Notes: generated by a model from the sequence alone, not told the origin. 42,922 nt of DNA from a virus (IMGVR_UViG_2728369185_000014); one strand, 5' to 3'. Shown: positions 15,822 to 41,908, numbered from the stretch's first letter. Numbers and translations: made by a program.

Positions 15822-16751
15822 ATGGCACAACAGAGAACTACCTCCCTCAGATCCATACCTTTAGACTTAGATGTTAAGCAAGAGGCTGTCATTAACGGTA
15901 TAGAAATGGGGGTACTCGATAACGGAATTCCGTACCTTACTCAGAATGGGTTGGCAAATGTTTGTGGTGTTCAGCGTTTGCGAATCAAGGAAATTACCGA
16001 TGAGTGGGCTCAATCTGTTGAGAACGGTATTTTCAAAAAAGGAAGAATGACTTTTATTGGTACATATCTTCTTAATGAAGGTTTTACAGATGAAAAACTT
16101 TATATACCAATAATTCGAAATGGTGTTGAGTACCATGCTTATCCAGATGTTGTATGCATGGCTATACTTGAATACTATGCCTTTGAAGCAAAACAAGCAG
16201 AAAGTGAGACTGCAATTAGATCTTACAGAGAGCTTGCTAAAAAAGGCCTCAAGACATTTATATACGAGGCGCTAAAATATCAACCGGAGGACCCGTGGAG
16301 GCATTACCATGACAGAGTATCTTTATTAAAAGATAAGGGAACCATACCTGATGGGTATTTCATTATATTTAATGAAATTGCAGGTATGATGGTAGATCTC
16401 ATCAATGCTGGATTAGCGATTAATCAGCATACCGTACCTGATGGCAGTGTTGGTTCTTGCTGGGCGCGTCACTGGAAAGCAAAGGGGTTAGCAACAGAAT
16501 TTGGAGAAAGAGTAGACTGTGAGCATTATTACCCTGAAGATTTTCTTCAGGCAAGTTCCAATCCTCAGATCATTAATGCCTATCCTGATTCTGCATTGTC
16601 AGAGTTTCGTAGATGGTTTAAGCATGAATATTTAACCACAAAGTTCCCACCGTATATTCTTAAAAAATCAAACGTGCTTCCTGGTGGTACAGAAGATGCT
16701 AATCGTCTGATAGAAGCTTTCAAAAAATCAGAGCTAGAAAATAAACCATAA
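15822..16751 (+). CDS. Uncharacterised nin-region protein with a possible KilA-N/Bro-N-like N-terminal domain
   Basis: ~309-aa ORF from the ATG 6 nt after AGGA (the track ORF starts at an upstream TTG); N-terminal ...INGIEMGVLDNGIPYLTQNGLANVCGV... resembles phage KilA-N/Bro-N DNA-binding domains; AT-rich. Confidence 0.5.
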   Translation: MAQQRTTSLRSIPLDLDVKQEAVINGIEMGVLDNGIPYLTQNGLANVCGVQRLRIKEITDEWAQSVENGIFKKGRMTFIGTYLLNEGFTDEKLYIPIIRNGVEYHAYPDVVCMAILEYYAFEAKQAESETAIRSYRELAKKGLKTFIYEALKYQPEDPWRHYHDRVSLLKDKGTIPDGYFIIFNEIAGMMVDLINAGLAINQHTVPDGSVGSCWARHWKAKGLATEFGERVDCEHYYPEDFLQASSNPQIINAYPDSALSEFRRWFKHEYLTTKFPPYILKKSNVLPGGTEDANRLIEAFKKSELENKP

Positions 16752-18443: not shown

Positions 18444-18800
18444 ATGCGTGATATGTATGAAGTAATGGATCGTTGGGGAGCTTGGGCTGCTTCAGACAAT
18501 AGCGGAGTGGACTGGCAGCCGATAGCGGCTGGTTTCAAGGGACTTTTACCTCATGGCAAAAAGTCACGGATTCAGTGTGATGATGACGAAGGCATCATGA
18601 TAGACAGTTGTGTGGCTCGGTTGAGAAGGTATAAACCAGAGGAATATGAGCTCATCATCGCCCACTTTGTTATCGGTATCTCATTACGCACTATTGCGAA
18701 GAAGAGAAAATGCTCTGATGGCACAATTAGGAAGGAACTGCAAACTGCAATGGGGTTTGTTGACGGCTGTTTAGCAATGTTAGCTTATAGTATGGCATAA
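18444..18800 (+). CDS. Q: Q-like late-gene antiterminator (short type)
   Basis: 118 aa MRDMYEVMDRWGAWAASDNSGVDWQPIAAGFKGLLP...; W-G-A-W-A motif and Cys cluster as in short Q/QuuD-type antiterminators; position after nin and before lysis genes. Confidence 0.7.
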   Translation: MRDMYEVMDRWGAWAASDNSGVDWQPIAAGFKGLLPHGKKSRIQCDDDEGIMIDSCVARLRRYKPEEYELIIAHFVIGISLRTIAKKRKCSDGTIRKELQTAMGFVDGCLAMLAYSMA

Positions 18801-19994
18801 AAAATAAAATAGATTTACTGCCGATTTTTCAAAAAAGACTGGGAACTGTTTATATCCAACGTAAATAAGGCCTCCATAAAACATGGCTGATGCGAGATAT
18901 TTAACAGTTCTCATCCTTTTTTTAGCTTTATCAATCAAACCTGTAATGCTACTCTTAATACTATCTGCATTATCTTTGATTTCTTTATTTTCTTCAAACT
19001 TTAAATACTTATCGAAAGCGGACTCCACTCGAGAACGTAAGTTGTCGAATGTTTCATTGAATATCTCAATAGAAATGTAATTGACTTTTTTTATCATCCA
19101 AAGTCCTGCGATAATCAATATTGCTTCGGTTGTTTCATTAGCCTTCACTAAGCCACCAGCTGCTATTAATGCACCGGGAATAGTCAATGCTTTTGTCTGA
19201 TTAGATGATATGAATTCGTTAATTTTACTCGTGAACTCAAGATTTTTCTCATCGAGTTCGTTAAGAATTTTATTTACAGAAAACCTCTTTGTGTAAATCT
19301 CATATAGTTCATCATATTTTTTCCTGACGAGTTCAGTAGAGTTAAGCAAGTCAAAGAAATTGAACGTACCATTTGCTTTAAATACTTCGTTTATGGCTGA
19401 GCGTATAACGAGCTTGCGCTCGCTTTTGTGTAAATCATTGATTTTTATTGTGTCGAGAAGCTCCTTTATAATTTCATATTTAAGAGACGAGTTCGATAAG
19501 CGATTAATCTCGCTATATTGTAAAAAATGCGTGAGTTCGACTGTATAACTTTTGTCTTCATTGGTGAAAAATAAGACAGAGCAGTCACTGTTATGATGAT
19601 CAGCAATTAATGAAAGGATATCTTTCCACATAAAGAAAATATGGATTTTTTCGATGCTTTCATTCTTAGAAGTAGGGAGTATTAACGGCGTTCCGATGAT
19701 ATAATTTTTCGGAAGAGCGTTTTGGGTGTTTACTCTAGACCAAAAAGACTCAACATTCTCATAAATTATAGCATCATCCCAAGATGAAGCTTGGCGATCT
19801 AGCCAAATTTCATTATTTTCGATGCAGGTTGTTGCCTTTTTATAACCTATAGATTGTAACAGTCTAATTATTTCAGAACTATTTACAATAACAATGCTTT
19901 CTTCAAGACTTATGACAGTGTAGTAGCCCTCAACTCTGCTTGAGGCTCCGTTAATAATCTGCGCTAATCTTGATAAGTCATCAGCAATTGTCAT
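18780..19994 (-). CDS. Uncharacterised protein with C-terminal transmembrane helices (404 aa), second gene of the Q-S cassette
   Basis: AT-rich ORF; hydrophobic segments near the C-terminus (ALTIPGALIAAGGLV, AILIIAGLWMI, YLASAMFYGGLIYVGY); its 3' end overlaps the Q 3' end convergently. Confidence 0.55.
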   Translation of the reverse strand: MTIADDLSRLAQIINGASSRVEGYYTVISLEESIVIVNSSEIIRLLQSIGYKKATTCIENNEIWLDRQASSWDDAIIYENVESFWSRVNTQNALPKNYIIGTPLILPTSKNESIEKIHIFFMWKDILSLIADHHNSDCSVLFFTNEDKSYTVELTHFLQYSEINRLSNSSLKYEIIKELLDTIKINDLHKSERKLVIRSAINEVFKANGTFNFFDLLNSTELVRKKYDELYEIYTKRFSVNKILNELDEKNLEFTSKINEFISSNQTKALTIPGALIAAGGLVKANETTEAILIIAGLWMIKKVNYISIEIFNETFDNLRSRVESAFDKYLKFEENKEIKDNADSIKSSITGLIDKAKKRMRTVKYLASAMFYGGLIYVGYKQFPVFFEKSAVNLFYFLCHTIS

Positions 19995-19996
19995 TA

Positions 19997-21172
19997 TTAG
20001 CTGTCTCTATATCTTTTGAGTTCATCATAATTTGCCTGACTCAATTTTATCACAATTTCGCATTTGTTGTCAGTGAGAATTACAGGCTTATTTGACTTTT
20101 CGTCTCCAATAGCTCCACGCATTATTTTCAACTTAAAATTATTGTCGTTATCTGCCACTTCAATTGTAAGCGCGCTTTCAGCTGCTTTAGGAGTTGGTTC
20201 AAATTGAGGGTCAATCTGGAAACCATTAAGATTAACAAAATCGACAAACGTTCCCTTACATTTGTGTGAATCAGTCAGGCATGAGTCAATTATTTTTGAA
20301 ATATCCTCTATCTTAACGGACTTATTTCCGTGTTTATCTTTTGATTTTTTTTCCAGTAAGGATTTAACTTCATTGTCAATAGTATCACGCAGTACACGAC
20401 CGAGTGAGTTTTTACTAGCAAAAATATCTATAGCACTGAATAATTGCTGAATGCTTCTTTTATTGTCCGAATCATGTCGGCAACCTAATGAGTCTTTGAA
20501 AAAATCGCTTTTAGATTTACCTTGCAAGAAATGTACATATGAGTCACCCTTGTTTTCTGGATAACTGGCTTCGAATAAAGTTAAATCGAACATCGCAGCC
20601 TGCCGTAAGGCATCGGTATTAATTGGATTTAATCTTGTTGGGGTCAACTTATCCGAATCAAAGTCATAGGCGCTTTGTTTATCAACCATTACGATTAGAA
20701 GTTTCCCCAAATCCTCTGGTTCGGTAGACTTATAGTGGATGAAAACAACGCTCCCCCCCTGAAGTTGGGCAACTCTCGATTCGTTATTAGCATTATGTTT
20801 AAGCTTCTCTATTATAGCTCTAGATAAATCAATGAATTCATTATTCTTATTAATGTATTTTTTTAGGATCGTAGGAATGGATGAAGGGTTGTGATCTGAG
20901 TCTAGGAAGTTATGAAATTTGTTTTTTCGGCTAAATTTTTTCTCAATTCTGGTTATGAATTCAGATGTGACTTCATTTTTTAGATCCCAAACTTCACCTA
21001 ATCGATAATCAAATGCTCTTGAATCATTTTTTTCAAGATTTGCTGTTACAGCACCAATAGGAAAGTACGATTGTTTGCCCAGCACTACAACATGAGGCGT
21101 GGCACCGCATTTATCGCAAGCTACAGTTGGGTCGTCAAGAACATTGCCACATTCTAAACAAGTTATATCCAT
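19997..21172 (-). CDS. Zinc-ribbon protein with a possible NdpA/YejK-like nucleoid-associated domain (391 aa), first gene of the Q-S cassette
   Basis: N-terminal CxxC...CxxC (CLECGNVLDDPTVACDKCG); central ...GGSVVFIHY...YVHFLQGKSKSDFF... resembles the YejK/NdpA family as I recall it; 2-nt gap to the downstream ORF. Confidence 0.55.
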   Translation of the reverse strand: MDITCLECGNVLDDPTVACDKCGATPHVVVLGKQSYFPIGAVTANLEKNDSRAFDYRLGEVWDLKNEVTSEFITRIEKKFSRKNKFHNFLDSDHNPSSIPTILKKYINKNNEFIDLSRAIIEKLKHNANNESRVAQLQGGSVVFIHYKSTEPEDLGKLLIVMVDKQSAYDFDSDKLTPTRLNPINTDALRQAAMFDLTLFEASYPENKGDSYVHFLQGKSKSDFFKDSLGCRHDSDNKRSIQQLFSAIDIFASKNSLGRVLRDTIDNEVKSLLEKKSKDKHGNKSVKIEDISKIIDSCLTDSHKCKGTFVDFVNLNGFQIDPQFEPTPKAAESALTIEVADNDNNFKLKIMRGAIGDEKSNKPVILTDNKCEIVIKLSQANYDELKRYRDS

Positions 21173-23662: not shown

Positions 23663-23830
23663 GAGGTTGCCCCGTATTCAGTGTCGCTGATTTGTATTGT
23701 CTGAAGTTGTTTTTACGTTAAGTTGATGCAGATCAATTAATACGATACCTGCGTCATAATTGATTATTTGACGTGGTTTGATGGCGTAGATGCACGTTGT
23801 GACATGTAGATGATAATTATTATCATTTTG

Positions 23831-23990
23831 CGGGTCCTTTCCGGCGATCCGACAGGTTACGGGGCGGCGACCTCGCGGGTTTTCGCTATTTATGAAAATT
23901 TTCCGGTTTAAGGTGTTTCCGTTCTTCTTCGCCGTAACCTAATGTTTTTATTTAAAACACCCCCTGAAAAGAAAGGAAACGACAGGTGCT
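23831..23990 (+). promoter_or_regulatory. cos packaging site (cosQ-cosN-cosB); cosN 12-mer at about 23862..23873
   Basis: GGGTCCTTTCCGGCGATCCGACAGGTTACG followed by GGGCGGCGACCT and CGCGGGTTTTCGCTATTTATGAAAATTTTCCGG, matching the lambda cohesive-end region as I recall it, immediately upstream of Nu1. Confidence 0.85.
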
Positions 23991-24050: not shown

Positions 24051-24570
24051 ATGGAAGTCAACAAAAAGCAGCTGGCTGACATTTTCGGTGCGAGTATCCG
24101 TACCATTCAGAACTGGCAGGAACAGGGAATGCCCGTTCTGCGAGGCGGTGGCAAGGGTAATGAGGTGCTTTATGACTCTGCCGCCGTCATAAAATGGTAT
24201 GCCGAAAGGGATGCTGAAATTGAGAACGAAAAGCTGCGCCGGGAGGTTGAAGAACTGCTGCAGGCCAGCGAGACAGATCTCCAGCCAGGGACTATTGAGT
24301 ACGAACGCCATCGACTTACGCGTGCGCAGGCCGACGCACAGGAGCTGAAAAATGCCAGAGACTCCGCTGAAGTGGTGGAAACCGCATTCTGTACTTTCGT
24401 GCTGTCGCGTATCGCAGGTGAAATTGCCAGTATTCTCGACGGGATCCCCCTGTCGGTGCAGCGGCGTTTTCCGGAACTGGAAAACCGACATGTTGATTTC
24501 CTGAAACGGGATATCATCAAAGCCATGAACAAAGCAGCCGCGCTGGATGAACTGATACCGGGGTTGCTGA

Positions 24571-24596
<26 letters not shown>
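24051..24596 (+). CDS. nu1: Terminase small subunit Nu1
   Basis: 181 aa, matching lambda Nu1 (MEVNKKQLADIFGASIRTIQNWQEQGMPV...). Confidence 0.95.
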
Positions 24597-28277
<3,681 letters not shown>

Positions 28278-28297
<20 letters not shown>

Positions 28298-29994: not shown

Positions 29995-30239
29995 ATGTCG
30001 ATGTACACAACCGCCCAGCTGCTGGCGGCAAATGAGCAGAAATTTAAGTTTGATCCGCTGTTTCTGCGTCTCTTTTTCCGTGAGAGCTATCCCTTCACCA
30101 CGGAGAAAGTCTATCTCTCACAAATTCCGGGGCTGGTAAACATGGCGCTGTACGTTTCGCCGATTGTTTCCGGTGAGGTTATCCGCTCCCGTGGCGGCTC
30201 CACCTCTGAATTTACGCCGGGATATGTCAAGCCGAAGCA
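29995..30239 (+). pseudogene. E: Major capsid protein E, 5' fragment (codons 1-82) cut by an insertion
   Basis: MSMYTTAQLLAANEQKFKFDPLFLRLFF...TPGYVKPKH matches the lambda E N-terminus, then diverges into 9 unrelated codons and a stop at 30270. Confidence 0.9.
30230..30239 (+). repeat. Left copy of a 10-bp direct repeat AGCCGAAGCA (putative att core)
   Basis: The same 10-mer is at the right junction (41118..41127); both copies lie exactly where E homology is lost and regained; placed by hand. Confidence 0.7.
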
Positions 30240-30402
30240 CTTAGCATGGCTTTCTGAGGCTTTCGTGTAGTTGCTGGTTTTTACACTTAATCTTTTGATA
30301 ATAAAGAATAAGTTTATCTGGTGCTTTCACTGAATTTTCCTCGTTATCTGTGTGTTGCAATCATCTCTGTATTGCAGCTTGTATTGCTTTTTGGGGCTAA
30401 AA

Positions 30403-31638
30403 ATGGCTGGCGAGAACAAACTGAGCGACAAAGCGCTTAAAGGATATCTGGGGAAACCCAGAGAAAAGCAGATCACCATTGCTGATGGAAAGGGGCTTTC
30501 TATTCGTGTGAGTACTAAAGGGGCTGTGAGCTTTGTTTTCTTCTACAGGTTAGCAGGTGGCCGGGCTGCTCCGGTCTGGCTAACGTTGGGTAAATATCCT
30601 GATATGTCACTCAAACAGGCAAGGGAAAAGCGCGACGAGTGCCGTGGTTGGTTGGCTGACAAACGTGATCCGCGTATCCAGATTAAGATTCAGGCTGAAG
30701 AACGCTTAAAGCCGGTCACTGTGGAGGATGCACTAAATTACTGGTATGAAAATTACTGTAAGGTGCGTCGTAAAACTCATGCTGTAACGCTTGGCAGATT
30801 TCGAAAGCATATCTTTCCCTATATCGGTCATTTGCCCGTAAATGACACTCACCTATATGAATGGCTGGACTGTTTTGACCGAATTAAACGTAATGCACCA
30901 GTTATGGCGGCGTATGTTTTTTCTGACACTAAATTAGCTCTTCGTTTTTGTCGGGTACGCCAGTACGCGACGTGTGATGCTTTAAAGGATTTGCGCATGA
31001 GTGATGTGGGGCAGATTGCAGGTAAGCGGGATCGGGTTCTGGATGAAGCCGAACTCGGCCAGCTCTGGAAGGCAATTTTTGTCGAGCCTGATTTAAAACT
31101 AATGTCTGAATACACGCGAAAAATGTTTGTGCTTTGTACAGTATTTGGATGTCGAATGAGTGAAGCCCGATTATCAGAATGGAGCGAATGGGATCTCGAA
31201 AGTTGGGTTTGGACTGTACCAAAAGATCACTCAAAAACTGGTGTTGAAATCGTCAGACCAGTACCTGAAATTCTACGACAGTGGGTAACGGATGTTCACG
31301 AAGAGACAAAACATACTGGTTATGTGCTGGGAAGTCTGCGAATTAGAGAAAGCGTAAGCAAGATTGGGGGGAAAATCGGTAAACGTTTGGGCCATGAAAA
31401 ACAATGGTCACTACACGACCTTAGAAGAACGCTATCTACTCATCTAAGTGATCTCGGTGTTGAATTTTATGTAGTAGAACAACTGTTAGGCCATGCGCTA
31501 CCTGGCGTGGCAGGTGTTTACAACCGGAGTAAGTTTATGGCTAAAAAACTGGATGCTCTGGAACTCTGGACTACATATCTCAATAGCATCGCAGGTGCTG
31601 ATTCAAAAGTGACAATCCTCAAACAAAAGGTTGGTTAA
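30403..31638 (+). CDS. int: Tyrosine integrase (P4-family type) of the inserted element
   Basis: 411 aa from the internal ATG; N-terminal arm-binding-type region and a C-terminal ...HDLRRT...LLGH...GVYNRS region typical of tyrosine recombinases; first gene inside the left junction. Confidence 0.85.
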   Translation: MAGENKLSDKALKGYLGKPREKQITIADGKGLSIRVSTKGAVSFVFFYRLAGGRAAPVWLTLGKYPDMSLKQAREKRDECRGWLADKRDPRIQIKIQAEERLKPVTVEDALNYWYENYCKVRRKTHAVTLGRFRKHIFPYIGHLPVNDTHLYEWLDCFDRIKRNAPVMAAYVFSDTKLALRFCRVRQYATCDALKDLRMSDVGQIAGKRDRVLDEAELGQLWKAIFVEPDLKLMSEYTRKMFVLCTVFGCRMSEARLSEWSEWDLESWVWTVPKDHSKTGVEIVRPVPEILRQWVTDVHEETKHTGYVLGSLRIRESVSKIGGKIGKRLGHEKQWSLHDLRRTLSTHLSDLGVEFYVVEQLLGHALPGVAGVYNRSKFMAKKLDALELWTTYLNSIAGADSKVTILKQKVG

Positions 31639-31639
31639 C

Positions 31640-31867
31640 ATGAAAAAAATGGCAATTGTTGATAAAAAGGGTCTGGAGTACATTCCTAACATTGACCGAA
31701 TGATCCGTGAGAAAGAATGTCGGGAGCTAACCACTCTTGCGAACAGCACACGCTGGAAGCTGGAGAAGGAAGGAAAATTTCCTAAGCGGATCAAGATTGG
31801 TTCCACTGCTGTTGCATATCGTCTTTCAGAAGTGCAGGCATGGATTCGAGGTGAGTGGGTAGTTTAA
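31640..31867 (+). CDS. alpA: AlpA-family transcriptional regulator/excisionase
   Basis: 75 aa starting 2 nt after the int stop; ...RELTTLANSTRWKLEKEGKFPKRIKIGSTAVAYRLSEVQAWI... fits the AlpA/Vis winged-helix family. Confidence 0.7.
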   Translation: MKKMAIVDKKGLEYIPNIDRMIREKECRELTTLANSTRWKLEKEGKFPKRIKIGSTAVAYRLSEVQAWIRGEWVV

Positions 31868-31936
31868 ATTATCTCAGAATAAAATATTATGAATTACTGA
31901 TTTGAGAATTTGTACTCAAATCAGTAATAACATTCT

Positions 31937-32473
31937 TTATAAGAGATTAAATCCAAATAAAGAGTAATCATATACCGGGGTGCATTGCATTCCACTGAAT
32001 ATGCTGATGTTTTTTTCTGTTTCTATCCTTTTTTCAATAAGTTGTTGTATATTTTTACAGTACAATTTGTGTGTGATGTTATTATCGTAAGCCTGATATA
32101 GCAACGTCAATGTTGACGCTAGGAAACATACAGATAAAATTAAAGTAACATATGCGGTTTTTTTATTTTTTGTCCATGATCTATTTGTTTGTGAAATATA
32201 AAGAATTCTGATGTGGATAATGGTGAGAGACAATAGCAGGCCACTCAATAAAATAAGTATTGGGTTTGCGTATTTTATTAATGGTTGAGAGCAAAAAACT
32301 ATTATAGCTCCTGTGACTGCGTATGAGAAAAAGGAGTAATTAAACTTCTTACTCCTTCTCTCAAGTATTTTAATTTCATCTTGTGTGGGGGTTTTAGATG
32401 CCTCTAATATAAGTTTATTGAATGTTTCTGTTATCTTGTTTTTTGTGTTTGTGGCTATTTTTTTTAGATTCAT
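31937..32473 (-). CDS. Accessory membrane protein (178 aa, about three TM helices)
   Basis: Very AT-rich ORF with hydrophobic segments (AVTGAIIVFCSQPLI, ILILLSGLLLSLTIIHI, YVTLILSVCFLASTLTLL); no homologue recognised. Confidence 0.5.
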   Translation of the reverse strand: MNLKKIATNTKNKITETFNKLILEASKTPTQDEIKILERRSKKFNYSFFSYAVTGAIIVFCSQPLIKYANPILILLSGLLLSLTIIHIRILYISQTNRSWTKNKKTAYVTLILSVCFLASTLTLLYQAYDNNITHKLYCKNIQQLIEKRIETEKNISIFSGMQCTPVYDYSLFGFNLL

Positions 32474-32823
32474 AGCATTCTAACTCCCTTAACTTATTTA
32501 TTACTTTCTCTTTATGATAAGAGAGGGGAATGACTTGGTAAAGTGATTTGTCATTAATAATGATAATCCTTGCGATAAATATTTCTGCAAGTTATTTATC
32601 TGTTTGTTGCTATCTTGTTAAGCGTTGGGTGTGGTTTATGTTTGGAGCGACTTTATTTAATCGTGATTTTATGGATTTATATTTATATCCTGTAAGATAA
32701 GCGCATGTTAGTTCAGGAGTAGTGTCAGATAAAATTATTCGGAGTAGAACTACCTTTTCTGTTTATTGCCAGTATTTACATAGCAATGCGCCGTAGTTAC
32801 TCACATCACGGCGCTGATACTAA

Positions 32824-33126
32824 TTATTCAGATTCTTTGGCTTTACGCCGCTGGAGTTCTTCACGAGCGACGGCTACGAGTTGCCCGATTTCCTCCGCTG
32901 CCTTGATGCCGATTTGTTCGACCTTAGCTAAGGCATCCAGTGAAGACACGAGGGGATTTTCTCCGCTTCCTTCTGCCTGGCGGCGGGCGATCTCACCGCG
33001 CATGGCGGTTACTATGAATCCGGCGTTGCTCTCGCCGTCCAGTTTTACGGATTCCATGCCCTCCATAACATCGTGGGGAACCCTGATCGTTGTCATTTGC
33101 GATTTTGCATTTTTGTATACAGACAT
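32824..33126 (-). CDS. Ribbon-helix-helix-type DNA-binding protein (100 aa)
   Basis: N-terminal ...MTTIRVPHDVMEGMESVKLDGESNAGFIVTAMR... has the pattern of CopG/Arc-type RHH domains; divergent from the rightward operon. Confidence 0.5.
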   Translation of the reverse strand: MSVYKNAKSQMTTIRVPHDVMEGMESVKLDGESNAGFIVTAMRGEIARRQAEGSGENPLVSSLDALAKVEQIGIKAAEEIGQLVAVAREELQRRKAKESE

Positions 33127-33334
33127 AGTTAATCACCAATTTGTTATGTGTATATCACTATACACAAAAGTGATATATAAAAACACTTGCAATGTATATC
33201 ACCACAATATAATGTATATCTCACATTATGGTCGCTATGTATCTCACAATGATCGATTCATAAAAACGACGAAACCCGGCAGTGCGCGAACACTAACCGG
33301 GCTTCTAACCAAACCGTTAAACGAGGTAACGATT
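33127..33334. promoter_or_regulatory. Divergent promoter region with TGTATATCAC/GTGATATA repeats
   Basis: AT-rich intergenic segment with at least four copies of TGTATATC(A/T)C in both orientations, between the RHH gene and the rightward operon. Confidence 0.45.
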
Positions 33335-33700
33335 ATGGCTGGAACACAGCATACCCAAACTCACCCTAAATTTATATACACCTTTCTGGCACTACACCAC
33401 GACCGCATGGCAGATGGAGCAACTACGGTACATGTAGCCGCTGACACGCTGGTTGATGCCCGCAAGATGGTTAAGGAGATGGGCTATACTGCGGCTTTCT
33501 GGAAAGGGCGTGAAGAAAACACGCTGTTTATTCAGAAATGCGAAAACAATTTCATCTGGCGTTTTATCGCCCTGAGTACGGCACAACCGCGCGTGATTCA
33601 CATCGTGGCCACCAGCGAACAGGAAGCCCGCCAGCAATCCCCGGCTGGTTGCGTGAGGGTATTCGCCGCCCGTATTCGTCAGGAGGTATGCCGTGCTTAA
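33335..33700 (+). CDS. Hypothetical protein (121 aa), first gene of the island rightward operon
   Basis: Internal ATG of the long track ORF; the upstream part of that ORF is antisense to the RHH gene. Confidence 0.45.
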   Translation: MAGTQHTQTHPKFIYTFLALHHDRMADGATTVHVAADTLVDARKMVKEMGYTAAFWKGREENTLFIQKCENNFIWRFIALSTAQPRVIHIVATSEQEARQQSPAGCVRVFAARIRQEVCRA

Positions 33701-33878
33701 AACCTTCCGTGTATTTGCCCGAGCGGTTAACCCACGAGGCCACACAATTGGTATCACTCAGAACGTGAAGGCTGTTAATGTTCAGACGGCTATTGCTGTG
33801 GTGAGAAGCGAATCATCAGAATATGGCTTATCACAAGTCATTATTTCAGCAGTGTATGAATTAAAAGAGGTGCATTAA
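33693..33878 (+). CDS. Hypothetical small protein (61 aa)
   Basis: Track ORF overlapping the previous stop; same operon. Confidence 0.4.
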   Translation: MLKTFRVFARAVNPRGHTIGITQNVKAVNVQTAIAVVRSESSEYGLSQVIISAVYELKEVH

Positions 33879-34069
33879 TGCAGGAAATTACATTACACGA
33901 AGCCGCTGAACGTGCGCACCAGACAGAAATTATTTGCCGCCTTCTTGAGGTATACCCGAACAAAATTACAGATGCTGATATATCCGCACTGGCGAGCCTA
34001 CTGGCGCGTCTTTCGGGAAGTGTCGCTAGTTTTTTGATTGAGGAAGAAAGTAAGCTGGTGGGGGATTAA
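33878..34069 (+). CDS. Hypothetical small protein (63 aa)
   Basis: Track ORF with stop/start overlap to its neighbours. Confidence 0.4.
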   Translation: MQEITLHEAAERAHQTEIICRLLEVYPNKITDADISALASLLARLSGSVASFLIEEESKLVGD

Positions 34070-34291
34070 ATGAATACAGAACGGGAAGTCTTTTTTAAAT
34101 TGTTAGCATGTGCAGAAAGTTCATTAACTTTAAATAATTCAGCAAAAGCAATATTAAATATGTGGCTTGATTGCATAAATGACAATGAAGATGCAAATAT
34201 TGCTTATGGCCTGTTGTCACTTATTGATGAAGCAGCAGAAAAACTCAATGACGCAATAAATAGTGCCCTGTTATCAAATAAGTCGAGTTAA
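34070..34291 (+). CDS. Hypothetical small protein (73 aa)
   Basis: Track ORF, AT-rich, contiguous in the operon. Confidence 0.4.
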   Translation: MNTEREVFFKLLACAESSLTLNNSAKAILNMWLDCINDNEDANIAYGLLSLIDEAAEKLNDAINSALLSNKSS

Positions 34292-34308
34292 GTCGAGGAA
34301 TAAATAAT

Positions 34309-34608
34309 ATGGAAATGAAAAATTCTGGCTTTATTGCCAGCGGCCCCGCTCGGCCTGAATTTATGAACGGCGATATTTACCGCGATAAATACGGCGGCAC
34401 GGTAACGATTAAAGGCGTGGCAGAACGGCGCATCACTTACCGCCGTGAGGGGTATAGCTATGACTGCGTGATGCCTGTTTATCAGTTCCGGCGTGATTTT
34501 TCCCTGGTATATGCCGCACCTCGCAGTAAGCCCACCAGCAGGGAAAAAGCGCGGGGAAACATCCAGAAAATGAAAAGCATGATTAACGCATTCAGGGGCA
34601 AAAAATGA
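34309..34608 (+). CDS. Hypothetical basic protein (99 aa)
   Basis: Track ORF whose stop overlaps the primase start. Confidence 0.4.
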   Translation: MEMKNSGFIASGPARPEFMNGDIYRDKYGGTVTIKGVAERRITYRREGYSYDCVMPVYQFRRDFSLVYAAPRSKPTSREKARGNIQKMKSMINAFRGKK

Positions 34609-36356
34609 AACTGGCACCGAACTTAAAAAAACAGCCACGCGACAGACTGACAGAGGTAATCATCTTTGCAGGTAGTGATGCGTGGAGCCATGCGAAAGAG
34701 TGGCAGGAATGGGCGGGTAAACATATTGCCGCCGACGATGTGCCGCCTGTCGTGCTGGCTGATGAGCAACTGAAAAACATCATCGATTACCGGATCATTG
34801 ATGAAGATCGTCAGTGTGTGCGTGTTTACCGCGCAGGACATATCACAGAGCACAGCATGACGCAGATTGTTACGTTACTGGCTGTGGCTGGAGTGAAGAC
34901 CGTACACGAATACGCGGGGATTACTGACACCAGCCCCGTGGATTTATCCGACCAGTTGCCGCGACTCAAAGAGGAATGCGAGCGTGGGGAAAGTCTGGTG
35001 CTTAATCTTCCGACGAAGCAAAAGGCGCAACTTTCACAGATGGCAGACAGTGAACGTGCACAACTACTTGCCGATCGCTTTGATGGTGTGTGTGTTCATG
35101 CAGAAAGTGAAATCGTCCACGTATGGCGCGGCGGGGTATGGTGTCCGGTCAGCACAATGGAGCTGAGCCGCGAAATGGTGGCGATCTATTCAGAGCACAG
35201 GGCCACGTTCAGCAAACGTGTAATCAATAACGCCGTGGAAGCGTTAAAAGTTATTGCCGACCCCATGGGGGAGCCGTCCGGTGATTTACTACCGTTCACT
35301 AATGGTGTGCTTAACCTGAAAACGGGGGATTTTTCTCCGCACTTACCGGAGCACTGGAGCACCACGCACAATGGCATTGAGTACACGCCACCAGTAGCAG
35401 GGGAAAACATCCGCGATAATGCGCCAAATTTCCATAAATGGCTTGAACATGCTGCAGGAAAAGACCCGCGCAAGATGATGCGTATATGTGCCGCGTTATA
35501 CATGATTATGGCGAACCGCTACGACTGGCAGATGTTCATTGAGGCCACCGGAGACGGGGGAAGCGGTAAGAGTACATTTACCCATATTGCCACCCTGCTT
35601 GCTGGCAAACAGAACACCGTAAGCGCAGAGATGACATCACTCGATGATGCAGGAGGGCGCGCGCAGGTTGTCGGGAGTCGTCTTATCGTCCTTGCCGATC
35701 AGCTGAAATATACGGGGGAAGGCACGGGCATCAAGAAAATCACGGGAGGCGATCCCGTTGAAATTAACCCGAAATATGAGAAGCGATTCACGACGATAAT
35801 AAGGGCGGTGGTACTGGCAACCAATAACGACCCGATGATCTTTACCGAACGGGCCGGAGGTGTGTCACGCCGTCGGGTGATTTTCCGGTTCGACAACATT
35901 GTAAGGGAGGACGAAAAAGACAAGGAATTACCGGAAAAGATAGCGGCAGAAATCCCCGTAATTATCCGCCGCTTGCTGGCTAATTTTGCTGACCCTGAAA
36001 AGGCACGGGCTTTATTACTGGAACAGCGTGACGGTGATGAAGCTCTGGCAATAAAGCAGCAAACGGATCCGGTTGTTGAGCTTTGCGCGGCGCTGGAGTT
36101 TCTGGAGGAAGCTCGTGGGCTAATGATGGGCGGTGGTGGTGACACCGTGAAGTACACGACCAGAAACAGCCTTTACCGTGTCTATATGGCCTTCATGGCA
36201 TATACAGGAAAGGGGAAATGTTTGAGCGTGAATGAGTTCGGAAAGGCTATGAGGTCAGCGGCGAAAGTTTACGGATATGAATATATTACGCGAAAAGTTA
36301 AGGGAGTCACGCAGACCAACGCAACGACTACTGATGATTGCGATGCGTTTTTATAA
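34605..36356 (+). CDS. Primase-helicase (P4-alpha/D5-type NTPase)
   Basis: 583 aa with Walker A GDGGSGKST and downstream helicase-like motifs; immediately followed by an iteron array. Confidence 0.8.
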   Translation: MKLAPNLKKQPRDRLTEVIIFAGSDAWSHAKEWQEWAGKHIAADDVPPVVLADEQLKNIIDYRIIDEDRQCVRVYRAGHITEHSMTQIVTLLAVAGVKTVHEYAGITDTSPVDLSDQLPRLKEECERGESLVLNLPTKQKAQLSQMADSERAQLLADRFDGVCVHAESEIVHVWRGGVWCPVSTMELSREMVAIYSEHRATFSKRVINNAVEALKVIADPMGEPSGDLLPFTNGVLNLKTGDFSPHLPEHWSTTHNGIEYTPPVAGENIRDNAPNFHKWLEHAAGKDPRKMMRICAALYMIMANRYDWQMFIEATGDGGSGKSTFTHIATLLAGKQNTVSAEMTSLDDAGGRAQVVGSRLIVLADQLKYTGEGTGIKKITGGDPVEINPKYEKRFTTIIRAVVLATNNDPMIFTERAGGVSRRRVIFRFDNIVREDEKDKELPEKIAAEIPVIIRRLLANFADPEKARALLLEQRDGDEALAIKQQTDPVVELCAALEFLEEARGLMMGGGGDTVKYTTRNSLYRVYMAFMAYTGKGKCLSVNEFGKAMRSAAKVYGYEYITRKVKGVTQTNATTTDDCDAFL

Positions 36357-36364
36357 AAAATGGC

Positions 36365-36615
36365 AATGGTTATCTACCTTGTCTACCTGACTGAAATAAA
36401 ATACTTTTATTTCAATGTATTAATGCAGGTAGATAACTATTTTTCACTGTCTACCTGTTATCTACCTTATCTACCCATTTTTGTAGACAGGTAAGGAGAC
36501 GGGTAGAGATGAGGTAGACAGCTATTTGGGGCTGTCTACCTCCCTGAAACCCGCGCCATTACTGGCCTGATAACTAATCAGGTAGACAAGGTAGACAAGG
36601 TGGTGGTGCACAAAA
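36365..36615. repeat. Iteron array (GGTAGACA/TGTCTACC, at least 10 copies) with an AT-rich spacer: putative island origin
   Basis: Repeated 8-9-mers in both orientations (TTGTCTACC, AGGTAGATA, CAGGTAGACAAGGTAGACAAGG...) flanking an A/T-rich segment directly after the primase gene. Confidence 0.7.
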
Positions 36616-36645
36616 AACTTTTTAAACGAGGGGGTAAAAATAAAA

Positions 36646-36888
36646 ATGCACACATCAGGAAAACTGAACAAACATATAAAGCCACATTACCGCGCCCTTG
36701 ATATGGCTGAACACTGGCTAAGGGTGGCGATTAAGGCAATAGACCGCAACGCCGGGGAAGGATACGCGAAAGCACATCCCGAACTGATAAGCGCATTCAT
36801 GACAACGGCGGCTGCAAACTTTGCCACGCTGACCGAACGGGAGATTGCCGAAGCGGAGGAAGTGACAACCATCAATATTAAGTCCTGA
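36646..36888 (+). CDS. Hypothetical protein (80 aa)
   Basis: Track ORF between the origin and ssb. Confidence 0.35.
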   Translation: MHTSGKLNKHIKPHYRALDMAEHWLRVAIKAIDRNAGEGYAKAHPELISAFMTTAAANFATLTEREIAEAEEVTTINIKS

Positions 36889-36899
36889 GAGCAGGCAGC

Positions 36900-37349
36900 A
36901 TGACGGCGCAAATAGCAGCTTACGGGCGGCTGGTGGACGACCCACAGGTAAAACATACCAGCAAGGGAACACCCATGACACTGGCACGGATGGCGGTATC
37001 TTTGCCATGCAGCCAGGCAGATGACGGAACGGCGACGATGTGGTTATCTGTGCTGGCGTTTGGCAGACAAGCCGACGCGCTGGCAAAGCATCACAAAGGC
37101 GAACTCCTGAGCGTGGCGGGTAATATGCAGGTGAGCCAGTGGAGCGGACAGAACGGGGAAACGCGGCAGGGCTGGCAGGTTATCGCAGACAGCGTAATCA
37201 GTGCCAGAACGGTGCGACCGGGCGGCAAAAAAGGTCAACAGGGGCAGGCTACTGATGCACTGAACAGAGCAAAACAACAGGCAGATCAGCAAGGAAGCCA
37301 TCCACCAGTGGGAGATAATGAGCAATGGGGAGATGATATTCCGTTTTAA
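36900..37349 (+). CDS. ssb: Single-stranded DNA-binding protein
   Basis: 149 aa with an OB-fold-like N-terminal region, a Gly/Gln-rich linker and the acidic C-terminal tail ...DDIPF characteristic of bacterial/phage SSB. Confidence 0.75.
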   Translation: MTAQIAAYGRLVDDPQVKHTSKGTPMTLARMAVSLPCSQADDGTATMWLSVLAFGRQADALAKHHKGELLSVAGNMQVSQWSGQNGETRQGWQVIADSVISARTVRPGGKKGQQGQATDALNRAKQQADQQGSHPPVGDNEQWGDDIPF

Positions 37350-37565
37350 ATATTGCCAATAAAAAAGGCCGGAAAAAATATATTTTCCGGCATGCTACAT
37401 AAATCCCGACCAAAGGGAGTGAAGATATTAACACTAATTATCCGCGCTGAAGTTGTCATCCCAAAACTTTATACAACATTGCACTCGGTTGCATGTGTTA
37501 GCATGACAAATATCGGTGATAGCATATATCCACAATTATTTTTAATGAATGTAAAGAGGATGAGT

Positions 37566-38606
37566 ATGGTTGATTTATATTCGCCTGCCCAGCTTGTGCA
37601 GGTGGCTAATGCAGAAGAGGTGCAAAAAAAATTAAATGCATTGTTTACCAGTTTGTTTTTCACTCGCTCGGTAATGTTTGAATCAAGAGACATTATTCTT
37701 GATACAATCGACGATCCAAATATCCCAATTGCAGCGTTTTGTTCTCCTATGGTGGGTAGTAAAGTTTCACGTGACGAAGGGTACGAATCAAAGACAATTC
37801 GTCCAGGCTATATGAAGCCGAAAAGCAGCATTGATCCAAATAAGTTAGCTGTGCGCCCTGCTGGTGTATCACCTGAGCAATACAATGCTTTTGGAGCGCG
37901 TAATATTAAAGTTAAACAGGCGATTGTAAATCAGGCTAAAGCTATTCGTGCACGTATTGAATGGCTTGCCGTTCAGGCAATCACAACGGGGAAAAATATC
38001 ATTGAGGGCGATGGCATTGAACGCTATGAACTGGACTGGAATATAAAACCACAAAATATTATCACGCAGTCCGGCGGTGCTGAGTGGTCAGGTAAGGATA
38101 AAGAAACTTTTGATCCAAATGATGATATTGAGAGCTACGCAGAATTTAGTGAGGGCGTCACTAATATCATCATTATGGGCGGTAATGTATGGAAGAAATA
38201 CCGTTCATTCAGAGCGATAAAAGAGGCTCTGGATACCCGTCGTGGTTCTAATTCCGAACTGGAAACGGCCCTTAAAGACCTTGGTGATTCGGTGAGTTTT
38301 AAAGGGTATATGGGCGATGTTGCGATTGTTGTATACAGCGGGCGTTATACCGACGAGGACGGAACTGAAAAACATTTCCTTGATCCTGATTTGATGGTGC
38401 TTGGCAATACGGCTCTTCAGGGGATTGTCGCCTATGGCGGTATTCAGGATCCGGAGCTAATCCGAATGGGGCTGACTAAAGCCGAACTTGCACCGAAAAA
38501 CTATATTGTGCCTGGTGATCCGGCTATTGAATATGTGCAGACACATTCAGCACCACAGCCAATACCGGCCCGCATCAATCGTTTTGTTACCGTTCGCATT
38601 GGCTAA
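37566..38606 (+). CDS. Major capsid protein homologue (lambda E-like)
   Basis: Alignable to lambda E along its length (e.g. ITQSGGAEWSGKDKETFDPNDDIESYA vs ITQSGGTEWSKRDKSTYDPTDDIEAYA; DTRRGSNSELETALKDLG vs DTRRGSHSELETAVKDLG; GDVAIVVYSG); start at the ATG 6 nt after AAGAGG. Confidence 0.8.
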   Translation: MVDLYSPAQLVQVANAEEVQKKLNALFTSLFFTRSVMFESRDIILDTIDDPNIPIAAFCSPMVGSKVSRDEGYESKTIRPGYMKPKSSIDPNKLAVRPAGVSPEQYNAFGARNIKVKQAIVNQAKAIRARIEWLAVQAITTGKNIIEGDGIERYELDWNIKPQNIITQSGGAEWSGKDKETFDPNDDIESYAEFSEGVTNIIIMGGNVWKKYRSFRAIKEALDTRRGSNSELETALKDLGDSVSFKGYMGDVAIVVYSGRYTDEDGTEKHFLDPDLMVLGNTALQGIVAYGGIQDPELIRMGLTKAELAPKNYIVPGDPAIEYVQTHSAPQPIPARINRFVTVRIG

Positions 38607-38615
38607 GGGGGAGCA

Positions 38616-38957
38616 ATGGCTACTCATTACACTGAACTCATGGCTGGCACTGAAGCACTGGTGACTACGCTGGGGATATTTTCAGCTAATAAAGGGGTAA
38701 TTCCTGCATTTACGCCACTGATGCAGGAAGATGCAACAGGTGCACTGGTGGTATGGGATGGTTCGAGCGTAGGTAAAGCGGTTTATGTTTCCGCTGTACA
38801 AATCGACACCGCGAAAAAAACACAGGCTCAGGTCTATAAGACAGGTGTCTTAAATGTTGATGCTCTGAACTGGCCTGAGTCTGTAAAAGAACTGTCAGTA
38901 AAGATTGCAGCGTTTGTTGGCTCAGGTATTTCTGTTCAGCCGCTGGCTCGTGTGTAA
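38616..38957 (+). CDS. Head decoration protein homologue (lambda D-like)
   Basis: 113 aa; ...VVWDGSSVGKAVYVSAVQ...AFVGSGISV parallels lambda D ...[18 protein letters not shown]...[10 protein letters not shown]; directly downstream of the capsid homologue, as D precedes E in lambda. Confidence 0.65.
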   Translation: MATHYTELMAGTEALVTTLGIFSANKGVIPAFTPLMQEDATGALVVWDGSSVGKAVYVSAVQIDTAKKTQAQVYKTGVLNVDALNWPESVKELSVKIAAFVGSGISVQPLARV

Positions 38958-38968
38958 AGGGGGATACA

Positions 38969-39352
38969 ATGCAGAATCATTACAATGACCTTAAGCCAAT
39001 TGCCGAAATGATGTATCCGGATCCAGCAGTAGAGGAATTAAAGGCTATTGCTGACAAAATGCGTTTAAGCGAGCGTCTTGTTGATATGAATCAGGTGATG
39101 GAACTTACAACCCTGAGTCGTCGTACACTGCTAAACCTTGAAGCACGTGGAGAGTTCCCCGAACGCGTGCAGGTTACGGAAGGGCGTAAGGCCTGGTATT
39201 TAAGCGAAGTGATCGACTGGATAAACAATATTCCGCGCGCTTCTGAATATTGCCGCGTACCTGTCCCAAAAAAGCCAGATGCGGCGCTATGCCTCAAGAT
39301 TGAGCGTGTACGCCGCAATGCGCGGGATGGTCGCTATAAGCTGATTGGTTGA
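38969..39352 (+). CDS. AlpA/excisionase-like winged-helix protein (127 aa) next to the island cos
   Basis: Central ...MNQVMELTTLSRRTLLNLEARGEFPERVQVTEGRKAWYLSEVIDWI... fits the AlpA/Xis-type HTH; sits immediately upstream of the island cos. Confidence 0.5.
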   Translation: MQNHYNDLKPIAEMMYPDPAVEELKAIADKMRLSERLVDMNQVMELTTLSRRTLLNLEARGEFPERVQVTEGRKAWYLSEVIDWINNIPRASEYCRVPVPKKPDAALCLKIERVRRNARDGRYKLIG

Positions 39353-39379
39353 TGAAATTAGGGCCCGTTCTGGCTGGCG

Positions 39380-39445
39380 GGTCCTTTCCGGCGATCCAGA
39401 ACGTTACGGGGCGGCGACCTCGCGGGTTTTCGCTATTTATGAGCA
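39380..39445 (+). promoter_or_regulatory. Island cos site (cosN 12-mer at about 39408..39419)
   Basis: GGGTCCTTTCCGGCGATCC...TTACGGGGCGGCGACCTCGCGGGTTTTCGCTATTTATGA is nearly identical to the prophage cos at 23840..23900, then diverges. Confidence 0.75.
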
Positions 39446-39568
39446 TTTTTAGGGGACTGGTGGTGGTTTTGTTGTTCGCTATATCTGTATGAATAATAAG
39501 AGAAAAACACAATCAACACACCAACCTGAAACAGTAATTAAGTTGTGGTATCAATGAAATTGCACCTG

Positions 39569-40096
39569 ATGAACAAAAAAAACATGGCAAAAAGTTGCCG
39601 TGTAAGCGCCACTGCGTTCGATAAGTGGGGAGTGATTCCCGTCGAGCGTAAGGGCCGCGAGGCGTTTTATGATGTCGCCAGTGTAATAGATAATCGGGTT
39701 AACAATGCAATCAGCCAGATTACAAACGAAACGGGCGAGATTGATGATGATGAACTCCTACGAGTCAGGATCAGATTGCTGACAGCACAGGCAGAGGCGC
39801 AGGAGCTTAAAAACGAGCGCGAACGCGGCGACGTTATTGATACAGCGTTTTGTATATACGTGCTTTCAAAACTGGCGAGTCAGATTTCTTCAATCATGGA
39901 CAGCCTGCCGCTTGCCATGACAAGGAAGTTTCCCGACATGAAGCCGTCTATGCTGGATGGACTGAAAAAAGAAGTTATCAGAGCCTGTAACGCATGCGCA
40001 AAACTTGACGAAAACATACCGCTGATGCTGTCCGATTATCTGATGGAAACTGCCGGAAACGTACCGGATAAGTTGCAGCTGAATAAAGATAAGTAA
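39569..40096 (+). CDS. Terminase small-subunit paralogue (Nu1-like)
   Basis: MNKKNMAKSCRVSATAFDKWGVIPV... and ...RLLTAQAEAQELKNERERGDVIDTAFCIYVLSKLASQISSIMDSLPLAMTRKFPD... parallel lambda Nu1; start uncertain (the track ORF begins at 39545). Confidence 0.7.
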   Translation: MNKKNMAKSCRVSATAFDKWGVIPVERKGREAFYDVASVIDNRVNNAISQITNETGEIDDDELLRVRIRLLTAQAEAQELKNERERGDVIDTAFCIYVLSKLASQISSIMDSLPLAMTRKFPDMKPSMLDGLKKEVIRACNACAKLDENIPLMLSDYLMETAGNVPDKLQLNKDK

Positions 40097-40107
40097 CGTA
40101 GTACGCT

Positions 40108-40389
40108 ATGACTGAATCCGAAATACTGCGATTAATCCGCCGTGCTTGTGGAATCAGCAAGCAGCATGACGAACAGGCCACGCAGCCGGACAGCGTGATC
40201 GCCGAAAATTACGCGCGTGTTGTTGCTGATGTGATGCGCCGTGATGGTATTGAGCTTAACGGCGTGGATATGCGCGACATACGGATCAGATTCCTTGAGT
40301 TGCTGGCATACCGTCGCCGTTCTCAACAACGAAGGGAGAGCGCGAAAAACACTTATCAGTGGAAGAAGCCGGAACGGTTGCGGCGGTAG
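40108..40389 (+). CDS. Hypothetical basic protein (93 aa)
   Basis: Track ORF downstream of the Nu1-like gene. Confidence 0.35.
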   Translation: MTESEILRLIRRACGISKQHDEQATQPDSVIAENYARVVADVMRRDGIELNGVDMRDIRIRFLELLAYRRRSQQRRESAKNTYQWKKPERLRR

Positions 40390-41117
40390 ATTCCTGATAT
40401 TCAGGAAAACCACGAATCCGGGGGTTTTACTGGCGCGGTGTACACGGTGGAACGTATAGCGTTACCTGACTTATTGCATTGTAAAAAGTTGAAAGGCACG
40501 GCCTGTAAGATGGGATGTTGTGAGTAGTTTAAAGCTACCCGCAAATTCTTTCGTTGTGCTGGCACAGGCGGTTAAACCGTCGGTAACTGGATAATCCCCA
40601 CTGGGGGAAAAGCTGGCTACATCCCTCACATCTGAGGACTGATAACGCAAAATTGCGTTGGCTGGCAGAGTGCAAATTTGCACGATGGCCTAACCCATTG
40701 ATTCTTTCGAAAACCCCCATTGGGGGAGAACGGGGGAATAAACCTGACTCATTGATTTTTCCACAATCCTTAATTTGAGGAAGCTGGATAGTTGCACTAC
40801 CCAAAAAGTGCAGTACCCACATAGCTGCTTAATAGCGTTTATTTTTTCCGCACACCTCAAATCTGAGAAGGCCGGAATGATGACATGGCAGGATTATGAT
40901 TCCTTGATTTCAAGGAGTCCTCCAGTGTGAAAATGAAATTATCTGGGCTGGTGGGTGAGTTGCTGATCTGCAACTCGGCTATGAAACTTAATAATCGAAC
41001 AGCATGTAAATTCATTTCTGTGTATTGCAGCATGTATTGCAACATAGTCATTCTGGTAGAGATTATGCTCTATTTTTCCTCTTATATCATTCACATACTT
41101 ACGTCATTGACTCATGT

Positions 41118-41127
41118 AGCCGAAGCA
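41118..41127 (+). repeat. Right copy of the 10-bp direct repeat AGCCGAAGCA (putative att core)
   Basis: Identical to 30230..30239; E codons resume immediately after it; placed by hand. Confidence 0.7.
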
Positions 41128-41908
41128 TGAGGTGAATCCGCAGATGACCCTGCGTCGCCTGCCGGATGAAGATCCGCAGAATCTGGCGGACCCGGCTTAC
41201 CGCCGCCGTCGCATCATTATGCAGAACATGCGTGACGAAGAGCTGGCCATTGCCCAGGTCGAAGAGATGCAGGCAGTTTCTGCCGTGCTTAAGGGCAAAT
41301 ACACCATGACCGGTGAAGCTTTCGATCCGGTTGAGGTGGATATGGGCCGCAGTGCGGCCAACAACATCACGCAGTCCGGCGGCACGGAGTGGAGCAAGCG
41401 TGACAAGTCCACGTATGACCCGACCGACGATATCGAAGCCTACGCGCTGAACGCCAGCGGAGTGGTGAATATCATCGTGTTTGATCCGAAAGGCTGGGCG
41501 CTGTTCCGTTCCTTCAAAGCCGTCAAGGAGAAGCTGGATACTCGTCGCGGCTCTCATTCCGAGCTGGAGACAGCGGTGAAAGACCTGGGCAAAGCGGTGT
41601 CCTACAAGGGGATGTATGGCGATGTGGCCATCGTCGTGTATTCCGGACAGTACGTGGAAAACGGCGTCAAAAAGAACTTCCTGCCGGACAACACGATGGT
41701 GCTGGGGAACACTCAGGCACGCGGTCTGCGCACCTATGGCTGCATTCAGGATGCGGACGCACAGCGCGAAGGCATTAACGCCTCTGCCCGTTACCCGAAA
41801 AACTGGGTGACCACCGGCGATCCGGCGCGTGAGTTCACCATGATTCAGTCAGCACCGCTGATGCTGCTGGCTGATCCTGATGAGTTCGTGTCTGTACAAC
41901 TGGCGTAA
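41128..41908 (+). pseudogene. E: Major capsid protein E, 3' fragment (codons 83-341)
   Basis: ...EVNPQMTLRRLPDEDPQNLADPAYRRRRIIMQNMRDEELAIAQ...DPDEFVSVQLA matches the rest of lambda E and is in frame with the 5' fragment once the insert is removed. Confidence 0.9.

Follow-up and report, generated by a model that had tools for sequence, protein, structure and literature searches.

What is a tyrosine-integrase element doing inside the major capsid gene of a prophage? The question is raised by the viral sequence IMGVR_UViG_2728369185_000014 (42,922 nucleotides, hereafter the window), in which capsid gene E of a lambdoid (DLP12/lambda-like) prophage is divided by an insert that brings its own integrase. 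A family of satellites with this habit, the helper-embedded phage-inducible chromosomal islands (HE-PICIs), was described by Tommasini, Mageeney & Williams (2023, NAR Genom Bioinform 5:lqad036; PMC10111431). The insert is almost certainly an HE-PICI of the 11capE group, integrated by its integrase at the site E:Phage_cap_E:80 in its helper's capsid gene and co-oriented with the late operon. An earlier interpretation of this DNA made from the sequence alone (the sequence-only reading) knew of no satellite that targets a helper structural gene; on this point it was mistaken, as embedding in helper gene E had been published in 2023 for 11capE, at the same gene and site (PMC10111431).

The interrupted capsid gene

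The E open reading frame (ORF) starts at position 29995 and is interrupted at codon 82. The stub is colinear with the lambda-type capsid protein across these 82 codons, and the truncated frame then runs on for 18 codons within the element. Upstream of the split gene lie the terminase, portal, protease and D genes, and downstream of it FI, head-tail and tail genes. In the annotation of an identical copy of the element, the N-terminal fragment is labelled 'major capsid protein, missing C-terminus'.

The 10-mer AGCCGAAGCA marks both junctions and is found exactly twice in the window. The identity between attL and attR comprises these 10 bases and extends no further. The block corresponds to codons 79–82 of E, or to profile positions ~75–78 in the current Pfam model. 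The two cores enclose 10,878 bp with a GC content of 45.5%, compared with 51–58% in the flanks.

Removal of positions 30240–41127 in silico yields an uninterrupted E ORF of 341 codons (82 + 259), whose product matches Pfam Phage_cap_E over its full length (242 bits). Intact 'major capsid protein' genes of several complete Escherichia coli genomes (among the matches listed, for example, NZ_CP025916) match the reconstructed empty site (230 bp) at 100% identity, and gene E of phage PhiR49_1 matches it at 99.6%. The two halves therefore belong to one gene with a precise interruption, rather than being two remnants of decay. The anatomy proposed by the sequence-only reading is borne out throughout: the E frame with its 82 and 259 codons, the intact gene upon deletion, the direct 10-mer repeat, an insert that begins with a tyrosine integrase and AlpA, the repeats about 100 bp inside each end (half-sites at 30368/30380 and 41021/41033, plus a degenerate one at 30351) and the right arm of about 730 bp (728 bp) without an annotated gene.

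A megablast search with the insert returned three identical copies and dozens at 97–98% identity, and all copies among the matches listed overlap split 'major capsid protein' annotations. Copies in E. coli strains APEC E14033 and NRG857c interrupt E at an identical position; the prophages that carry them differ from the one here, as does their right-end cargo. To count occupied sites, 5,426 complete E. coli genomes were searched with a 230-bp attL probe at a coverage threshold of at least 80%. The attL junction is present in 172 of them. The E half alone occurs in 3,205 genomes, with 4,533 places in total, and 3,103 genomes contain the reconstructed empty site. The 172 occupied sites amount to ~3% of the genomes and to roughly 4% of lambda-type E copies. 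Other prophages, where the sequence-only reading had suggested looking, hold both the same element and its empty site.

The junction predicted for the excised element (attP) has no match in the IMG/VR viral contigs or in a one-genome-per-species collection. It is matched by one human-gut metagenome contig from a close relative (L007; 8,651 bp, 2.9x coverage), which contains, in order, the primase, an E'-D'-HTH-cos-terS segment, the right arm including the doubled motif, a core of the AACCCAAGCA variant, the left arm and int-alpA. No E sequence is found on either side of this core. The contig appears to show what the integrase would produce by acting at the core, whether as a circle, a concatemer or a tandem arrangement.

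Affiliation with the 11capE group

The prototype of the group is Eco567.11capE from E. coli NRG857c. This PICI measures 11 kb, lies in capsid gene E of prophage 50icd, has a capsid gene of its own and is bordered by attL and attR with an identity block of 10 bp (PMC10111431). The integrase of the insert is 99.5% identical to the prototype integrase (WP_000896726) over all 411 residues, with differences at 2 of 411 positions. The identity is 100% for AlpA, 98.6% for the satellite capsid protein E', 100% for the decoration protein D' and 96% for a second AlpA-family protein (HTH2). The primase, at 48% protein identity, belongs to a different replication module. The element is a mosaic relative to 11capE: the first 3.2 kb are 99% identical and the segment from SSB to cos 96%, whereas everything to the right of cos is different.

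The attachment site agrees with the published one. The identity block lies at E:Phage_cap_E:80, and attP carries no replacement sequence for the disrupted late gene. The attL of the window is almost base-for-base that of the E_Phage_cap_E_80 attL alignment in the available portion of the supplement, where the block 'agccgaagca' is listed for these elements with at least 85 occurrences (PMC10111431). The core is AGCCGAAGCA here and AACCCAAGCA in the prototype; both are catalogued in the same paper.

The integrase arms show a similar agreement. In the published attP, the doubled motif, tgTGTATTGCantgTGTATTGCa, is found at 81 ± 2 bp on the upstream side of the centre and at 132 ± 2 bp on the downstream side (PMC10111431). 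In the reconstructed attP, the half-sites occupy −101 to −94 and −89 to −82 upstream, and +133 to +140 and +145 to +152 downstream, all on the + strand. Counted from the core centre, −82 is the end of the right doubled TGTATTGC motif and +133 the start of the left one. Both spacing and co-orientation are as published. Exact TGTATTGC occurs 8 times in the window, and 4 of the 8 copies are the arm half-sites. The left doubled motif finishes 16 bp ahead of the int ATG, and arm binding could therefore autoregulate int. The right arm shares only short blocks with other PICIs: positions 40641–40728 are 92% identical to a capsid-forming PICI (cf-PICI), and 40946–40986 are common to a PICI at the clpS site. 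Several perfect palindromes are also observed in this arm (40390–41117), namely GTGCAAATTTGCAC, CCCCCATTGGGGG and GAGTTGC-n6-GCAACTC.

The genes int, alpA and pri are co-oriented with E, and SSB, E', D' and terS are likewise on the + strand. HE-PICIs are organized in four zones, in the order Integration, Bro, Replication and Late (PMC10111431). Three of these zones are present in the insert and stand in this order: int and alpA make up Integration, DUF4222, primase, iterons and SSB form Replication, and E', D', cos and terS form Late. The second zone contains YlcI/YnfO, an Icd-like ORF and small ORFs, and neither a Bro-N domain nor a C4/isrK RNA is detected there. The integrase is placed in the 11capE clade by its identity to the prototype rather than by phylogeny. 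Taken together, the matches in integrase, AlpA, arm spacing, orientation and gene order assign the element to the published family, at the site that is the most common one published for it. The proposal of the sequence-only reading that a satellite uses a core within helper E as its attachment site, so that integration divides E and precise excision would restore it, is upheld by the restored gene, the recurrence in ~172 genomes, the integrase and the metagenomic attP junction.

The element thus has in common with 11capE its target gene and codon, 10-bp block, late-operon co-orientation, arm motif spacing and gene order. It differs, apart from the core, in its right end, where a Nu1-type terS and a 93-aa ORF take the place of HEPN/DUF262, and in its helper, which is related to a prophage at argU rather than to one at icd and has a nonsense codon in the portal gene.

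Table 1. Coordinates of the element, its attachment sites and selected helper features. Gene positions in the insert follow the RefSeq annotation of an identical copy; families were assigned by profile scans (Pfam, PHROGs).
Feature	Position	Strand	Basis
Helper cos (cosN 23862-23873), upstream of helper Nu1 (24051-24596)	23830-23902	+	
In-frame stop in helper portal gene B (26696-28297), codon 157, ...FVQAT*DTS...	27164-27166	+	
E N-terminal fragment, codons 1-82 (last base of codon 82 from the element)	29995-30239	+	ORF list; Phage_cap_E profile positions 1-78
attL crossover core AGCCGAAGCA, 10-bp identity block	30230-30239	+	Repeat comparison
Left (P') arm: degenerate half-site TGTGTTGC at 30351, doubled TGTATTGC at 30368-30375 and 30380-30387	30351-30387	+	
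Tyrosine integrase, 411 aa, co-oriented with late operon	30403-31638	+	Pfam Arm-DNA-bind_3 and Phage_integrase
AlpA, excisionase/activator family, 75 aa	31640-31867	+	Pfam Phage_AlpA, 56 bits
Two accessory ORFs: 178-aa hypothetical (31937-32473), YlcI/YnfO (32824-33126)	31937-33126	-	Annotation, profile scans
Variable regulatory zone: Icd-like, three small ORFs (PHROGs 3672, 1478, 2196), DUF4222 protein	33335-34608	+	
Primase/helicase, 583 aa, D5_N, DUF5906 and Pox_D5	34605-36356	+	Pfam
Iteron cluster, (G/A)TCTACCT direct and inverted repeats	36365-36600	.	Repeat search
SSB, single-stranded DNA-binding protein	36900-37349	+	Pfam SSB
Satellite major capsid protein E', 346 aa	37566-38606	+	Pfam Phage_cap_E, 143 bits
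Satellite head decoration protein D', 113 aa, 38% identical to helper D	38616-38957	+	Pfam HDPD
Second AlpA-family winged-helix protein (HTH2), 127 aa	38969-39352	+	Pfam Phage_AlpA; PHROG 2790; PDB 8c3t AlpA family
Satellite cos: cosQ-cosN and first bases beyond	39377-39449	+	73 bp, 93% identical to helper cos 23830-23902
Satellite cosN GGGCGGCGACCT, exact	39409-39420	+	
Satellite Nu1-family small terminase (TerS), 180 aa	39554-40096	+	Pfam Phage_Nu1, 87 bits, profile 33-162 only
Conserved hypothetical p93, 93 aa	40108-40389	+	PHROG 1561
Right (P) arm, 728 bp without annotated gene; doubled TGTATTGC at 41021-41028 and 41033-41040	40390-41117	.	
attR core AGCCGAAGCA	41118-41127	+	Repeat comparison
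E C-terminal fragment, codons 83-341 and stop	41128-41908	+	ORF list, in-silico restoration, annotation

Gene content, cos and small terminase of the satellite

The annotation and profile scans reveal no portal, protease, TerL or tail gene in the insert. It is a satellite and not a phage. Its own E-like and D-like genes, cos and terS went unmentioned in the finding of the sequence-only reading.

The iteron cluster that follows the primase gene is probably the satellite origin of replication (ori). In the PICIs of Gram-negative bacteria, the ori is located downstream of pri (PMC10111431). Within E', codons ~80–88 contain AGCCGAAAAG at the place of the helper core AGCCGAAGCA, with 7 of 10 bases in common and other flanks. 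The divergence fits the published idea that these elements avoid integrating into themselves.

In the second zone, positions 33268–33340 on the − strand match the SymR antitoxin RNA family (RF01809) over its full length, but at 35.3 bits the score stays below the gathering threshold of 61. The match runs antisense to the beginning of the Icd-like ORF (33335) and may mark an immunity or antitoxin RNA of the satellite. A P4-type immunity RNA (C4/isrK) has no Rfam match in this zone, and the accessory ORFs of the element have no match among the PADLOC defence models.

The cos of the satellite closely resembles that of the helper up to cosN, but the cosB-equivalent downstream of it is unrelated to helper cosB. 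The satellite TerS is 38% identical to helper Nu1, mostly in the C-terminal two thirds and including the extreme C-terminus, while the N-terminal DNA-recognition part has diverged. Among structures in the PDB, helper Nu1 matches lambda TerS 1–98 and, weakly, RppC; the satellite TerS matches neither lambda Nu1 1–98 nor RppC. An Rpp-type packaging factor was also considered and rejected, as none of three candidates, the TerS-like, HTH2 and p93 proteins, matches RppC (6HLK/6HN7) at E ≤ 1.

The prototype lacks terS and is presumed to use helper TerS, and the available part of the supplement text contains no terS or Nu1 terms (PMC10111431). With its own cos and Nu1-type TerS, this copy is a cargo variant rare among HE-PICIs: the terS-bearing right end is found in 4 of the 5,426 complete E. 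coli genomes. An ordinary PICI in the chromosome, at the cspD/clpS locus, has the same E'-D'-HTH-terS-p93 module, and a cf-PICI at that locus also ends in the p93 ORF. An exchange of the right end with classical PICIs has evidently taken place.

The region just after cos is a hotspot for cargo in E-site HE-PICIs. It contains a 438-aa unknown protein in APEC E14033 (L002, 15598–16914, − strand), HEPN and DUF262 proteins in NRG857c (L004, 15537–17253, − strand), and terS with p93 in the window.

Tentatively, and with some doubt on our part, the copy may be a packaging variant that depends neither on helper TerS, as proposed for the prototype, nor on an Rpp adaptor, as in EcCICFT073. Its own Nu1-family TerS, with a replaced N-terminus matched to the non-lambda cosB, would recruit helper TerL directly, and with E' and D' of its own the satellite could build and fill heads while helper E is interrupted. 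The genomes behind this proposal are the four complete E. coli genomes and one gut-metagenome contig. PICI capsid genes were found to be dispensable in a model system (PMC10111431).

The element can also be compared with other classes of satellites. Its int-alpA ... pri ... capsid-gene ... cos layout, a length of ~11 kb, the lambdoid helper, and a lambda-type cosQ/cosN followed by a non-lambda cosB are all shared with the Gram-negative cos PICIs of the EcCICFT073 type, reportedly described by Fillol-Salom et al. (2018 in ISME J and 2019 in Mol Cell). As in that class, whose members measure about 10–20 kb, int, alpA, a pri-rep gene and a helper-like cos are combined within 10.9 kb that lack a full virion module. 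Unlike those elements, which occupy chromosomal sites, this one is integrated in a late gene of the helper, and in place of a detectable Rpp homologue that retargets helper TerS, it encodes a full-length Nu1-family TerS. Rpp is common in Gram-negative cos PICIs, although not universal.

With cf-PICIs, the element shares a major capsid protein and a small terminase of its own, as well as the p93 ORF at the right end. The complete HK97-type head module of cf-PICIs (capsid, protease, portal, connectors, TerS, TerL) is reduced here to E', D' and TerS of lambda type. P4-like satellites are characterized by capsid-size and transactivation genes (sid, psu, delta) and a P2-type cos; the ORFs scanned by Pfam or PHROGs include none of these genes, and the cos is of lambda type.

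The helper, rival explanations and the proposed cycle

A prophage located at argU (tRNA-Arg) in E. coli GN06489 is a mosaic relative of the helper. The helper's portal gene B contains an in-frame stop, which is annotated as an 'internal stop' in the GN06489 prophage as well, where the late region is 99.98% identical. With this nonsense codon, particle production probably requires another lambdoid helper; without portal no heads form, and the composite probably needs another lambdoid phage to move.

Additional features of the helper lie outside the late region. Its early region (1–12300) is mosaic relative to the otherwise 99.9%-identical GN06489 prophage, and positions 1–24000 of the window reach at least 80% coverage in no complete E. 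coli genome. A BstA abortive-infection protein is encoded at 15807–16751 (PADLOC BstA, E = 4e-121). Furthermore, an anti-phage pair is located at 18780–21172 on the − strand, with matches to the NCBIfam equivalogs DS1_2_antiphage (18780–19994, 375 bits) and DS1_1_antiphage (19997–21172, 451 bits); PADLOC 2.0 is without a model for this pair. The two genes lie between antiterminator Q and holin, an interval that is a classical moron position.

Several points weigh against reading the insert as an HE-PICI that lives from its helper. The stop in portal gene B may make the composite a dead end. The study of the prototype recovered no plaque-forming or satellite particles (PMC10111431), so that for E-site HE-PICIs in general exploitation of the helper is presumptive. 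Excision, late read-through and packaging in this strain are extrapolated from the prototype and from lambda biology. The junction on the gut contig, of low coverage, could derive from a tandem integrated pair instead of a free circle. Finally, the Pfam and PHROGs scans detect no Bro-N domain protein in the variable zone.

The first of these points leads to the strongest rival, which we consider only a little short of probable: that the element is a family member trapped in a defective helper, and the two no longer form a working satellite/helper pair. The portal stop is common to the near-identical GN06489 prophage, many HE-PICI helpers look truncated or degraded, and not even the prototype yielded particles (PMC10111431). 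On the satellite side, however, all ORFs, the att arms and cos are intact, and the integrase has diverged from that of the prototype at two residues only. The missing portal could come from a co-resident or incoming lambdoid phage, and a single nonsense codon may be recent or suppressed.

It is very unlikely that the insert is a generic integrative island, such as a defence island or a P4-like element, which uses E as an attachment site without parasitizing the prophage. Relatives do carry defence-like cargo at the right end (HEPN and DUF262 in the prototype), and genes for Icd-like, DUF4222 and D5-type primase proteins are also known in P4-like elements. The cos that nearly duplicates the helper's, the Nu1-type TerS and the lambda E- and D-type genes argue against such an island, as they only make sense with lambdoid packaging. 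Lacking portal, protease, TerL and tail genes, the element would form no particles alone, and the P4 genes sid, psu and delta are likewise missing from the scanned ORFs.

Entry by homologous recombination between helper E and E', instead of site-specific integration, is barely credible. The element does contain an E homologue, and AGCCGAA is common to the core and the equivalent E' codons, but E' lies 7.3 kb inside the element and not at its ends, the two proteins are only 42% identical, no hybrid E/E' gene exists, and a clean 10-bp duplication stands beside arm motifs at fixed spacing. This route was rejected on the E/E' comparison. Equally negligible is an assembly artefact joining two unrelated loci through a repeat of just 10 bp, a general possibility effectively refuted by the same junctions in 172 independently assembled complete genomes, with prophages at different chromosomal sites, by a repeat shorter than assembler k-mers, and by E halves that are in frame and rebuild a gene identical to intact copies.

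If the insert is, as is almost certain, an HE-PICI, a cycle can be proposed from lambda and PICI biology and by analogy with the prototype, for which quantitative PCR (qPCR) and deep sequencing after mitomycin C revealed composite excision, then replication, then satellite excision, with precise attB and attP (PMC10111431). Upon SOS induction, the whole composite would excise and replicate. Late transcription antiterminated by Q would then run from Nu1 through D and the E stub into int-alpA. No strong plus-strand terminator is seen between E and int, and a Q-modified polymerase would ignore terminators. Because int-alpA would be read by this Q-dependent transcription, Int and AlpA would be made only in the late phase. 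They would excise the satellite at the core and rebuild E late, as a 'timer' that delays the capsid.

The excised circular satellite would subsequently replicate from its own ori. Its TerS, which combines the Nu1 C-terminal region with a different N-terminus, would direct helper TerL to the satellite cos, and the DNA would enter heads equipped with the helper's portal, protease and tails, probably in the form of concatemers of phage length. Since lambda heads need roughly 38–51 kb, four units (4 x 10.9 = 43.6 kb) would fill one head. Filling by four units has been reported for EcCICFT073 (cited in PMC10111431).

Excisable elements that regulate gene integrity are known from the skin element in sigK and from phage-like elements in comK or mutL. 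As in these systems, an integrase-borne element splits a gene without replacing it, and precise excision would restore the gene at a defined time. In contrast to them, the gene that is interrupted here is that of another mobile element, a prophage, and it is presumably the satellite, not the cell, that benefits from the timing (discussion of PMC10111431).

Given that the embedding itself is already known, the value of the present case is modest and confirmatory. It adds a count of E-site occupancy, a rare terS-bearing variant, a natural attP junction from a gut metagenome and the nonsense codon in a helper portal gene, and it indicates that a late module including a Nu1-type terS has been exchanged between embedded and chromosomal PICIs. 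In HE-PICIs, as pointed out in 2023, the satellite can control its helper in cis, by withholding the capsid until it has excised; while embedded, it is passively replicated and transcribed with the helper. For annotation pipelines, this means that 'pseudogenised' capsid genes of lambdoid prophages may be reversibly split.

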